Shown piece by piece: positions 57,762 to 60,578 of a stretch of DNA of 64,000 bases. Below the pieces are notes generated by a model, which did no database searches, was not told where the DNA came from, and saw only the letters and a program-made list of their open reading frames with translations. Each line of letters begins with the position of its first letter. Position 1 is the stretch's first letter. Both the position numbers and the translations under genes were made by a program. This DNA comes from Escherichia phage vB_Eco_T-01: sequence record PQ438391.1, one strand, 5' to 3'.

Positions 57762-58223
57762 ATGATTATTAATGAAAACTCTTGGCACTATAAATTATTC
57801 AAATTGTTTAACGATGAATGGCAACGACCTAAGACACTATGCGCATATTTTTGGTCTATTGCCATTCCTACATTTTTCGTTTCTATTTTTGGGTGTACTA
57901 TACTCGTAGGGCTAACAATTATTTGTGCAGAAAGCCTACAACGTTGGCTTATTTTCGGTAGTTTATGGACTCTTCTTCCATCAGCATTTATACTTGCGCT
58001 TTTGGTTGTTTTACTTATTATCGGTTCATTTGTTATTCCTGCACAACTGCGTGAAAAATATAAAGATTATAAATGGAAAAAGGACTATGCTTTACACGTA
58101 GAAAATATTGATAGAGCGTATAAAGGTTTACCTCCTATTCAACCCAAGAAATCGATTATCGTTGAATTTTTAAAAGCTCGTAAAGCTAAAGTATGTCCTG
58201 TTATTGAATATAAGGCTGAATGA
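57762..58223 (+). CDS. membrane protein (three hydrophobic segments)
   Basis: 153 aa; ATGA coupling to downstream nucleotidyltransferase. Confidence 0.5.
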   Translation: MIINENSWHYKLFKLFNDEWQRPKTLCAYFWSIAIPTFFVSIFGCTILVGLTIICAESLQRWLIFGSLWTLLPSAFILALLVVLLIIGSFVIPAQLREKYKDYKWKKDYALHVENIDRAYKGLPPIQPKKSIIVEFLKARKAKVCPVIEYKAE

Positions 58224-59233
58224 TGAAAACAGTAATGAAAAGCTATTTTGGTAGTCATCTTTATGGAACTTCTACTCCAGAATCTGATGTAGATTTTAAA
58301 GAAATCTTTGTTCCTCCTGCTCGTGATATTCTTATCGGAAACGTTAAAGAGCACATGAGTAAAAACACTAACAACACATCATCTAAAAACACTAAAGATG
58401 ATATTGACCATGAACTATACAGTCTTAAATATTTCTTTAAATTAGCAGCAGATGGTGAAACTGTAGCATTGGATATGCTTCACACTCCACCTGAACTAGT
58501 GGTTAAATCTGATTTGCCTGATGTGTGGAAGTTTATTCAAGACAACCGTTCTCGTTTTTATACGACTAACATGAAATCCTATTTAGGATATGTCCGCAAG
58601 CAAGCTTCTAAATACGGTGTCAAGGGTTCTCGTTTGGCTGCATTACGTGATGTATTGAAAGTAGTTAATCAAATCCCCGAGCAATGGGTTGATTACCAAG
58701 AAGACGGTTCCATTAAGCAGCGTCGCACTAAAGTTGAAGATATTAAGCATCGTCTTCCAGAAAACGAATTCTGTGAATGGGTGTTCCATAATCATGAGAA
58801 AACAGGCCCACAAACGTTCTACACTGTGTTGGGTCGTAAATATCAGACAACGCTTTCTCTTATTGAGCTTAAGCAGTCACTGAACAAATTAGATGCTGAA
58901 TATGGTGAACGTGCTCGTAAGGCCGAAGCCAATGAAGGTATTGACTGGAAAGCTCTGAGTCATGCTTGCCGTGGTGGACTCCAACTATTGGAAATTTACA
59001 AAACTGGTGACTTGGTTTATCCACTCAAAGATGCTCCATTTATTCTCGACGTGAAGTTGGGTAAACATCCATTTAAAACGGTTCAAGAGTTTTTGGAAGA
59101 TGTGGTCGATCAAGTAGAAGCAGCATCTACTGAAGCTTCTAAGAACGGTATGCAGCAAAAAGTAGACATGGGTTTCTGGGATGACTTCCTTGAGAAGGTC
59201 TATCTTGAAAACCACCGAAGTTATTATAAATGA
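58220..59233 (+). CDS. Pol-beta superfamily nucleotidyltransferase-fold protein
   Basis: N-terminal 'GSHLYGTSTPESDVDF' fits the GS-x(9-13)-DxD motif; 337 aa with helical C-terminal domain; terminator downstream. Confidence 0.6.
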   Translation: MMKTVMKSYFGSHLYGTSTPESDVDFKEIFVPPARDILIGNVKEHMSKNTNNTSSKNTKDDIDHELYSLKYFFKLAADGETVALDMLHTPPELVVKSDLPDVWKFIQDNRSRFYTTNMKSYLGYVRKQASKYGVKGSRLAALRDVLKVVNQIPEQWVDYQEDGSIKQRRTKVEDIKHRLPENEFCEWVFHNHEKTGPQTFYTVLGRKYQTTLSLIELKQSLNKLDAEYGERARKAEANEGIDWKALSHACRGGLQLLEIYKTGDLVYPLKDAPFILDVKLGKHPFKTVQEFLEDVVDQVEAASTEASKNGMQQKVDMGFWDDFLEKVYLENHRSYYK

Positions 59234-59235
59234 TA

Positions 59236-59260
59236 GGGAGCCTTCGGGCTTCCTTTTTTT
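59236..59260 (+). terminator. intrinsic terminator after nucleotidyltransferase gene
   Basis: GGGAGCCttcgGGCTTCC + TTTTTTT. Confidence 0.85.
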
Positions 59261-59284
59261 ATTTCAAAAATTTTTCACAAAACT

Positions 59285-59314
59285 GTTTACAAGCATAAAG
59301 CTTTATGGTACTAT
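59285..59314 (+). promoter_or_regulatory. early promoter (GTTTAC-N18-TACTAT)
   Basis: follows terminator 59236-59260; shares upstream block with 43713 promoter. Confidence 0.7.
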
Positions 59315-59351
59315 ACAACTATCAAAACAAATGAGTGAATGGAGATACAAA

Positions 59352-59552
59352 ATGACTACTTTGAATAAACGTTTCGGTAAAGCTAAACCTGGCTGTGCAG
59401 CAGAACGTCGTTACATTTTCGCTCAGTTAGAAGATGTAGAGTATCAGATTAATCAAGTTCACATTACTGGCATCGAGCCTATGTGTGGCCTTGAAGCTCT
59501 TCGTGAAGTTCGTGACGGGTATCGTCGTGATATTGAAGAAATGTCAAAATAA
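59352..59552 (+). CDS. small hypothetical protein
   Basis: 66 aa from SD-preceded ATG 59352; early promoter at 59285-59314. Confidence 0.5.
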   Translation: MTTLNKRFGKAKPGCAAERRYIFAQLEDVEYQINQVHITGIEPMCGLEALREVRDGYRRDIEEMSK

Positions 59553-59582
59553 GTGTACAAACTGATAGGACTATGTTATAGT
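59553..59582 (+). promoter_or_regulatory. early-type promoter with palindrome-flanked -10
   Basis: GTGTAC-N18-TATAGT; 9-bp inverted repeat GATAGGACT/AGTCCTATC brackets the -10. Confidence 0.55.
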
Positions 59583-59609
59583 AGTCCTATCAAATCAAAG
59601 GAGAATAAA

Positions 59610-60578
59610 ATGAAAACTGTAACTATCAATAAGGGTATCTACTTCGGTAAAGAAATCTCTGGAACTTTTGAGCTCTTAGGTGAATGGTTCCCAGATAATG
59701 CTCCGGTAGATGCACAAGGAGATGGTAAAGTTTTTGTTGAAATTGACGGTAAGCGTCGCGGTGTTTGGGTTTACAAATCAGACATTTCATATGATGGTGT
59801 AAAAGTTGAAGAAGTTAAAGAATCGTATGAAGATATGAAAACCCGCATTAATAAAAGATTTAATGTTATGGGAATGATGACGAATGGTATTATTAACGGA
59901 AACATTCGTTCATTAATTATCTCTGGTGCGGCGGGTATTGGTAAAACGTATTCTTTAGATAAAGCTTTAAATAAAGCAAATGATATTGGATACATTGAAT
60001 ATAAAAGCATTAACGGTAAAATCTCCGGTATCGGTCTTTATGAACAGCTTTGGAATAATCGTGAAGAGAATTCTGTCCTTTTGATTGATGATGTGGATGT
60101 TTTCTCTGATATGGACATTCTTAATCTTCTGAAAGCTGCTCTGGACACTGGAGAGACCCGTAAAGTCTGCTGGAGCACTGCATCTTCTTACTTAGAAGAA
60201 AAAGGCATTGAGCGTGAGTTTGAATTTAAAGGAACGATTGTTTTTATCACAAACGTTGACATTGACCGCGAATTAGACCGTGGTACTAAACTTGCTCCAC
60301 ATTTACAAGCATTAGTGTCCCGCTCGGTTTATTTGGATTTGGGTGTTCACACTAATGAAGAAATTATGGTCAGGGTTGAAGATGTTATTCTTTCAACTGA
60401 CATGATGCAAAAGCGCGGTCTTTCTGATGAAGAAACTTATAAAGCATTATCATGGATGAAAGTTAATGTTAATCGTTTACGCAATGTTTCACTGCGTACT
60501 GCACTTTATCTTGCTGACTTTATTATGACCGACAAAAACGGTTGGGAAGAAATTGCTGAGGTTACTCTTCTGAAATAA
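59610..60578 (+). CDS. P-loop ATPase (AAA-like)
   Basis: Walker A 'GAAGIGKTYS', Walker B 'VLLIDDVD'; start at ATG 59610 (track ORF uses GTG 59553). Confidence 0.65.
   Translation: MKTVTINKGIYFGKEISGTFELLGEWFPDNAPVDAQGDGKVFVEIDGKRRGVWVYKSDISYDGVKVEEVKESYEDMKTRINKRFNVMGMMTNGIINGNIRSLIISGAAGIGKTYSLDKALNKANDIGYIEYKSINGKISGIGLYEQLWNNREENSVLLIDDVDVFSDMDILNLLKAALDTGETRKVCWSTASSYLEEKGIEREFEFKGTIVFITNVDIDRELDRGTKLAPHLQALVSRSVYLDLGVHTNEEIMVRVEDVILSTDMMQKRGLSDEETYKALSWMKVNVNRLRNVSLRTALYLADFIMTDKNGWEEIAEVTLLK

Follow-up and report, generated by a model that had tools for sequence, protein, structure and literature searches.

The nrdC.11–nrdC.10 segment of a T4-like Escherichia phage: probably independent early genes, one for a candidate RlaP-type tRNA-repair nucleotidyltransferase

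A 64,000-nucleotide stretch of Escherichia phage vB_Eco_T-01 (PQ438391.1), referred to here as the window, carries genes for a membrane protein, a nucleotidyltransferase (NTase), a small open reading frame (ORF), and a P-loop ATPase between positions 57,762 and 60,578. The locus raises two questions: what the NTase does during infection, and whether these neighbors form one functional module. An earlier interpretation of the letters made without database searches (the sequence-only reading) had proposed a takeover or anti-defense module of unknown function. The source of the window is a Tequatrovirus (T4-like phage), oriented opposite to the T4 reference NC_000866. The window gives a 98% match to Tequatrovirus genomes, and the 3-kb region matched 796 phage records, with Escherichia phage vB_EcoM_KAW1E185 (Tequatrovirus) at the top with 98.2% identity. 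The NTase is the orthologue of T4 NrdC.11 (98% protein identity; NP_049709, UniProt P39242), and the ATPase is the orthologue of T4 NrdC.10 (99% protein identity; NP_049708, P39261). The two genes and their family assignments are already in the literature, and a 2006 paper had matched nrdC.11 to the COG3541 nucleotidyltransferases and nrdC.10 to AAA (PMC1524935). Our analysis favors, with modest confidence, a segment of independent early genes plus two accessory ORFs in which NrdC.11 is an RlaP-type tRNA-repair NTase.

NrdC.11 was assigned to a family by profile searches. Residues 7–135 aligned with positions 23–142 of the 249-position Pfam RlaP profile (PF10127) with a score of 44.1 bits against a gathering cut-off of 23 (E = 2.6e-11), and the protein matched PHROG 388 'nucleotidyltransferase' with E = 9e-137. 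The family contains 3,423 clusters at 50% identity (E <= 1e-3), and PF10127 is carried by all listed homologues. Residue conservation was determined in two alignments of 53–57 homologues with identities down to 34%. The active-site motif consists of G11-S12, 10 residues, and D23-V24-D25, and the third acidic residue is D63. The motif described in the sequence-only reading (GS-x11-DVD) is therefore present, but its spacing is 10 residues rather than 11. The arrangement conforms to the Pol-beta active-site pattern hG[GS], 9–13 residues, Dh[DE]h followed by a third carboxylate. G11, S12, D23, D25, N57, and D63 are invariant across the homologues, and so are the C-terminal basic residues R231, K244, H248, R251, and K279. 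For D85, K131, and R138, invariance holds in one of the two alignments, with conservation of at least 90% in the second. As judged from sequence, the invariance of D23, D25, and D63 supports the earlier assignment of a Pol-beta-type NTase with an intact acidic triad. The AlphaFold model (predicted local distance difference test score, pLDDT, 88.4) has an N-terminal NTase domain, in which D63 lies at the start of strand 62–68, a beta-rich insert at residues 155–209, and a helical C-terminal domain with helices between residues 214 and 336. The long helical C-terminal domain recognized earlier is thus present, but the C-terminal part is not purely helical because of the beta-rich insert.

The sequence-only reading had compared the protein with cGAS/DncV-like, OAS-like, and MNT-type enzymes. 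This comparison leads to an alternative in which NrdC.11 is a signaling or oligonucleotide-forming enzyme (cGAS/DncV, OAS, or Hailong HalB type) that makes or mimics second messengers against host immunity. RlaP is in the same Pfam clan as OAS and SMODS (PMC10400998), and the top Foldseek match in the PDB was HalB, an oligodeoxyadenylate-forming NTase (E = 7e-3). However, the HalB match covers only the NTase core of ~150 residues with a template modeling (TM) score of 0.26–0.3, and no CD-NTase/OAS (cGAS-type) structure was found among the top 50 PDB matches. Kanamycin nucleotidyltransferase (KNTase), 3c18, LinB, and MNT were likewise weak matches limited to the core, all with E values of at least 7e-3. 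PADLOC gave no match for the NTase at E <= 0.1, and the Pfam scan identified RlaP and no SMODS, OAS1_C, or NTP_transf_2 match. Characterized RlaP relatives extend RNA ends (PMC12776372). These data do not place NrdC.11 among the CD-NTase, cGAS-DncV, or OAS enzymes, and a signaling function is very improbable. An MNT antitoxin of a HEPN/MNT type VII system was also rejected. The NCBIfam MntA model scored 13.2 bits against a cut-off of 60, the protein has 337 residues compared to ~100–150 in typical MNT antitoxins, and the neighboring ORFs had no HEPN model match in the Pfam scan. NCBIfam and PADLOC returned no significant match for any of the four proteins of the region. A search of PDB sequences with the NTase alone or with a 53-sequence profile found nothing relevant in a copy from which the PfRlaP structure was apparently missing.

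The family assignment carries information about the substrate. The sequence-only reading held that nothing fixes a substrate, but the characterized family members act on RNA 3' ends (PMC12776372). This work, a December 2025 preprint, reports that Pseudomonas RlaP adds one or two nucleoside monophosphates (NMP) or deoxynucleoside monophosphates (dNMP) to an RNA 3'-OH and does not act on DNA or protein, that it prefers Mn2+ and the 5' half of a cleaved-tRNA mimic, and that aminoacylation of a repaired tRNA minus one nucleotide is better with RlaP (PMC12776372). That one or two NMP are added to an RNA 3'-OH was shown for PfRlaP and PaRlaP only; the canonical RlaP genes of P. fluorescens and P. 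aeruginosa lie within RtcB-RlaP-RtcA operons, and the RlaP crystal structure consists of an NTase domain and a helical domain (PMC12776372). T4 NrdC.11 was placed in cluster 5 of the PF10127 family network, and its function was stated to be unknown (PMC12776372). RlaP takes its name from its association with RNA ligases and was predicted to restore, before ligation, nucleotides removed by nucleases like RloC (PMC7824862). RloC cuts out the wobble nucleotide, and this lesion is expected to frustrate phage repair (PMC2610378, PMC3458546).

The relationship between NrdC.11 and canonical RlaP was examined using a set of ~250-residue proteins from bacterial loci that match PF10127 over its full length (E about 1e-79). 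HHalign of the NrdC.11 clade against this set aligned residues 9–96 only (probability 79.5%, E = 1.5e-5), and D63 was positioned opposite the invariant third Asp of canonical RlaP. The two forms share an N-terminal Pol-beta domain with the GS motif, DxD, and third Asp, and a general layout in which a helical domain comes after the NTase domain. RNA ligase or end-healing genes accompany the NrdC.11 clade in some of its loci, mainly cellular ones. They differ in that NrdC.11-type proteins are ~80 residues longer and contain the insert at 155–209, and the phage nrdC.11 gene has no adjoining ligase. Since only the N-terminal domain aligns, NrdC.11 formally belongs to RlaP, but its substrate-side half is longer and divergent. 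A K-x6-R helix motif, K244...R251 in NrdC.11, lined up with K149...R156 of canonical RlaP in a C-terminal HHalign comparison that was not significant overall. The chemistry of RlaP is likely conserved in NrdC.11, and the specificity may not be.

We propose that NrdC.11, as an RlaP-family enzyme, transfers nucleotides to RNA 3' ends without a template. From a nucleoside triphosphate, probably with Mn2+, its Pol-beta site (G11-S12, D23, D25, D63) would attach one or two nucleotides to an RNA 3'-OH. Its most likely job in infection would be the replacement of nucleotides taken from cleaved tRNA by host RloC-type anticodon nucleases. Phage Pnkp and Rnl1, and possibly Rnl2, could then heal and seal the ends and rebuild a working tRNA. 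RNA repair in phage-host conflict was first exemplified by T4, with Pnkp and Rnl1 acting against the anticodon nuclease PrrC, and the role proposed for NrdC.11 belongs to the same conflict over tRNA integrity. Pnkp and Rnl1 mend and join RNA ends without being able to put back a lost nucleotide, and NrdC.11 is predicted to supply that step. The three proteins have a near-identical genus-level spread in cultured phages. The counts for NrdC.11, Pnkp, and Rnl1 are 285, 286, and 287 in Klebsiella phages, 83 each in Shigella phages, 69 each in Acinetobacter phages, and 56 each in Enterobacter phages. The matching counts are consistent with a shared NrdC.11-Pnkp-Rnl1 pathway. The sequence-only reading had considered a takeover or anti-defense role plausible for the NTase and ATPase together. 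A possible counter-defense role is supported for the NTase, most likely in the form of tRNA repair.

Genomic context was analyzed in 78 viral NTase loci (83 for the RNA-repair and tandem-RlaP checks) and in 80 bacterial or archaeal (cellular) loci of the same clade. RNA repair genes were located within 10 kb of the NTase gene in 5 of the 83 viral loci, and RtcB, Pnkp, or Rnl1 within 8 kb in 13 of the 80 cellular loci. RtcA and Ro60 were also among the direct neighbors of the cellular NrdC.11-type genes. Canonical RlaP was present in 24 of the cellular loci, and in 22 of these it directly follows the NrdC.11-type gene on the same strand. The gene order RtcB, long RlaP, canonical RlaP occurs, for example, in L243 and L202. 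The tandem pairs include L171, L185, L195, L198, L219, L220, L233, L237, and L243, with the NTase at about 8001–8950. The tandem pair of long-form and canonical RlaP was not found in the 83 viral loci or in the window. A contig binned with a Bathyarchaeota metagenome-assembled genome (L170, 80–3626) encodes on one strand an NrdC.11-type NTase, a Pnkp-like protein (E = 8e-49), and an Rnl1-like protein (E = 1e-17). This compact cassette is in effect a T4-type set for RNA repair plus the NTase, and it may be of viral origin. In one uncultured phage (L007/L008, 6951–7439), the NrdC.11 homologue and the start of an HD-domain phosphohydrolase gene downstream of it overlap, and HD and HD_4 proteins also adjoin bacterial NrdC.11 homologues. 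The HD-domain protein could be an end-processing partner of the NTase.

Several observations weigh against the tRNA-repair assignment. Homology of NrdC.11 to characterized RlaP is detectable only in the N-terminal ~135 residues. The C-terminal halves, which would bind the substrate, gave a nonsignificant HHalign probability of 0.27% when compared alone, and that of NrdC.11 carries the beta insert. The match in genus counts may reflect only common descent within Straboviridae. No RNA ligase adjoins the NTase gene in the window, where the nearest one, Rnl2 (4265–5266), is 54 kb away. The fragment from nrdC.11 to mobD.3 is lost in a viable genome-reduced T4 grown on laboratory E. coli (PMC9825161); this deletion is compatible with an accessory role for nrdC.11 and lends no positive support. 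The position of the long form directly upstream of canonical RlaP in 22 of 80 cellular loci suggests that the two forms differ in function.

These points bear on a second alternative, in which the target of NrdC.11 differs from that of canonical RlaP. The enzyme would tail 3' ends of host or phage mRNA or tRNA for regulation or decay, or nucleotidylylate proteins or small molecules, with the divergent C-terminal domain setting the specificity. The lack of significant alignment in the C-terminal half, the insert, and the tandem loci, in which the two forms appear not to be redundant, all fit this idea, and among the structural neighbors are KNTase, ANT(4'), and LinB, which are NTases of small molecules, and MNT, which AMPylates proteins. 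However, the KNTase and MNT matches are weak and confined to the core, canonical RlaP labels neither protein nor DNA (PMC12776372), and RtcB, RtcA, Ro60, Pnkp, and Rnl1 recur beside NrdC.11-type genes. We regard a different target as unlikely. The tandem arrangement also leads to a more specific suggestion that we advance tentatively and consider rather unlikely. Long-form RlaP would be a second, distinct RNA-end NTase that is the bacterial tandem partner of canonical RlaP, often with RtcB close by, and the phage long form alone would restore nucleotides against RloC. By analogy with the split CC- and A-adding enzymes, each member of the pair would perhaps add a different nucleotide or act on a different end.

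The second question is whether the NTase works together with its neighbors, and the transcription signals (Table 1) place the NTase and ATPase genes in separate units. The first early-type promoter probably starts the transcription unit that ends with the NTase gene, and no terminator was found on the + strand between this promoter and position 59235. The terminator hairpin after the NTase gene has a predicted energy of −13.3 kcal/mol (z = −2.9), is conserved in T4, and is annotated as a terminator in KAW1E185 and SA21RB. The early promoter that follows is near-identical in T4, where it stands directly before nrdC.10, and it is an early promoter in the SA21RB annotation. The sequence-only reading had correctly recognized this terminator followed by a separate early promoter. 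The gap between nrdC.11 and nrdC.10 is 115 bp in T4, containing the terminator and the early promoter, compared to 376 bp in the window phage. The simplest reading is that this early promoter drives the 66-residue ORF and nrdC.10 together. The small ORF between promoter and ATPase gene is present as described earlier. The palindrome-flanked ATPase promoter was only partly borne out. The palindrome exists as the hairpin before the ATPase gene, but the promoter inside it (TGTACA-17-TATAGT) matches at only 9/12 positions and the segment is absent from T4, which uses the upstream early promoter. The hairpin promoter was therefore rejected as the main driver of the ATPase gene. In time-resolved omics of T4, the RNAs of both nrdC.10 and nrdC.11 are classed as early, and the protein is early for nrdC.10 and middle for nrdC.11 (PMC9697503), in agreement with the early expression predicted for both genes.

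The two genes adjoin each other only in T4-like phages. The ATPase gene lies 1.0–3.3 kb downstream of the NTase gene in 37 of the 78 viral NTase loci and is absent from the other 41, and it is near the NTase in none of the 80 cellular loci. Conversely, an RlaP NTase was near the ATPase in 4 of 80 viral loci collected with the ATPase profile. The NTase and ATPase genes are more than 20 kb apart on one contig (L062 and L090), and 285 Klebsiella phages have the NTase compared to 149 with the ATPase. The ATPase and the membrane ORF adjoin the NTase only where NTase identity exceeds about 50%. The membrane ORF and the small ORF are both missing from T4, which also speaks against one module. The possibility that the membrane protein, NTase, and ATPase form one takeover or anti-defense module, for example with the ATPase loading or remodeling the NTase substrate, draws on the order and strand of the 37 viral pairs, which are invariably the same, on the early expression of both genes, and on the coupling of the membrane ORF to the NTase gene by overlap of its stop (TGA, 58221–58223) with the NTase start (ATG, 58220–58222). 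This ATGA coupling at 58220–58223 had been noted earlier and was confirmed. In four divergent phage loci (L047, L051, L052, L059), the NTase and ATPase are the sole window genes left in the neighborhood. In some Acinetobacter-type phages the two genes still adjoin at NTase identities as low as about 51%; this point speaks against full independence, and the two proteins may have some functional link. Against a single module stand the terminator and promoter between the genes, in T4 as well as in the window, and the co-occurrence counts given above. A single module is improbable. The two transcription units and the co-occurrence counts do not support one NTase-ATPase module, and the arrangement is best read as synteny shared among T4-like phages and not as a unit of function.

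NrdC.10 was analyzed separately. Its true start is the ATG at 59610 behind AAGGAG and not the GTG at 59553. Walker A (GAAGIGKT, residues 106–113) and Walker B (LLIDDVD, with D160 and D161) are both invariant, as are N215 and R238; this confirms the Walker A/B ATPase predicted earlier and identifies it as AAA+. The model (pLDDT 88.7) shows a small N-terminal beta domain, a long helix, the AAA+ core, and a lid. NrdC.10 has the hallmarks of an AAA+ protein: the Walker A and Walker B motifs, sensor 1, and an alpha-beta-alpha core with a helical lid after it. The closest known systems are MoxR-type and other AAA+ ATPases (NorQ, CbbQ, sigma-54 activators, DnaA/ORC, RFC, and RuvB). A clamp loader of the gp44/RFC type was tried and rejected: PHROG 168 and PHROG 5846 matched with E about 1e-4 over only ~90 residues, and many other AAA+ folds score as well as RFC. 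The NrdC.10 family was found in 1,311 phage records, including 149 from Klebsiella, 121 from Vibrio, and 48 from Aeromonas phages, a genus spread unlike that of the NTase. In uncultured contigs (L091–L166), the ATPase sits among recombination genes: a UvsW-like helicase is encoded ~2 kb downstream of it in 52 of the 80 ATPase loci, and on the upstream side UvsY is ~2.1 kb away in 29 loci and UvsX ~3.5 kb away in 26. The N-terminal beta domain is missing from many of the homologues from uncultured contigs, and the neighborhood in Pseudomonas phage PAC2, the nearest cultured relative of the environmental homologues, is uninformative. A role for NrdC.10 in DNA transactions is a lead only, as the contigs with the recombination cluster may represent one clade. 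We infer that NrdC.10 is an AAA+ remodeling ATPase unrelated to the NTase, and it is probably not a partner of NrdC.11.

Table 1. Positions of genes and signals in the nrdC.11–nrdC.10 region of the window
Feature	Position	Strand	Description
T4-early-type promoter	56525..56553	+	TTTACA-17-TATAGT, upstream TG, 10/12 match; early promoter annotated there in phage SA21RB
y05I-like gene 1	56686–57231		Pfam T4_y05I_N and T4_y05I_C, 'putative transcription factor'
y05I-like gene 2	57238–57759		Pfam T4_y05I_N and T4_y05I_C; in tandem with 56686–57231
Membrane ORF, 153 aa	57762..58223	+	PHROG 944 'membrane protein', E = 8e-50
NTase NrdC.11, 337 aa	58220..59233	+	Long-form RlaP-family (PF10127) Pol-beta nucleotidyltransferase
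Intrinsic terminator	59235..59264 (hairpin 59235–59254 and T-run)	+	8-bp GC-rich stem, TTCG loop
T4-early-type promoter, downstream unit	59286..59314	+	TTTACA-17-TACTAT, upstream TG
66-aa ORF	59352..59552	+	PHROG 6200, E = 2e-36; GGAG ribosome-binding site
Hairpin	59563..59592	+	12-bp stem, −17.7 kcal/mol, z = −4.4; between 66-aa ORF and ATPase gene
ATPase NrdC.10	59610..60578	+	AAA+ ATPase with small N-terminal beta domain

The gene layout of the segment was compared to that of T4. The order and strand of nrdC.11 and nrdC.10 and the intervening terminator and early promoter are the same in both phages. They differ at two places. T4 has mobD where the window phage has the membrane ORF and a second y05I-like gene, and the window phage has a ~260-bp insert, absent from T4, consisting of the 66-residue ORF and the hairpin between the promoter and nrdC.10. 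The membrane ORF has two long uncharged stretches at about residues 25–56 and 62–96, which translate into 2–4 membrane spans; the protein is a membrane protein as described earlier, but exactly three spans are not established by hydropathy. It lies upstream of the NTase in 34 of the 78 viral loci, occurs in 840 phage records, and is an accessory gene, absent from T4. The 66-residue ORF occurs in 145 phage records and in only 1 of the 78 viral NTase loci, and a copy with 98.5% identity is located in the e.5-nudE region of Mosigvirus LH01 (L250, 3001–3201). The trailing hairpin has no U-tract, yet it is a terminator in the SA21RB annotation. The ORF and its hairpin (59352–59592) behave as a mobile cassette or insert. 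The HNH homing endonuclease gene mobD lies between mobD.1 and nrdC.11 in T4 (PMC2988022). The window has two tandem y05I-like genes, compared to one in T4 (mobD.1, then mobD), and the arrangement looks like a replacement associated with the homing endonuclease. The distant Rnl2 gene of the window is an orthologue of T4 RNA ligase 2 (rnlB) with 98.8% identity.

Database entries for these genes contain several irregularities. 'Thioredoxin' is the name of NrdC.10, NrdC.11, and adjoining small ORFs in many GenBank/UniRef entries, and the label is apparently an annotation artifact spread from the gene names nrdC.x. RefSeq names T4 MobD.4 and the KAW1E185 MobD.1 homologue 'molybdopterin-guanine dinucleotide biosynthesis protein MobD', which is also an artifact. 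At position 61 (window numbering), where D is nearly invariant, NrdC.11 of the T4 reference has N, and it also contains an ambiguous residue (X). The T4 NrdC.10 diverges from the window protein past residue 316 and is 3 residues longer. Errors in sequencing, or a frameshift, in the old reference may account for these oddities. One T4 database record keeps just 12% of nrdC.11.

In practical terms, the analysis corrects the annotation and separates the NTase from the ATPase. Two subjects are worth following, the function of T4 NrdC.11 and the tandem pairs of long-form and canonical RlaP in bacteria. If NrdC.11 restores a nucleotide, the classic T4 repair pathway would gain a third enzyme. If the proposal is true, Pnkp and Rnl1 together with long-form RlaP would defeat the wobble-excising RloC, which would settle whether RloC damage is irreparable for phages.

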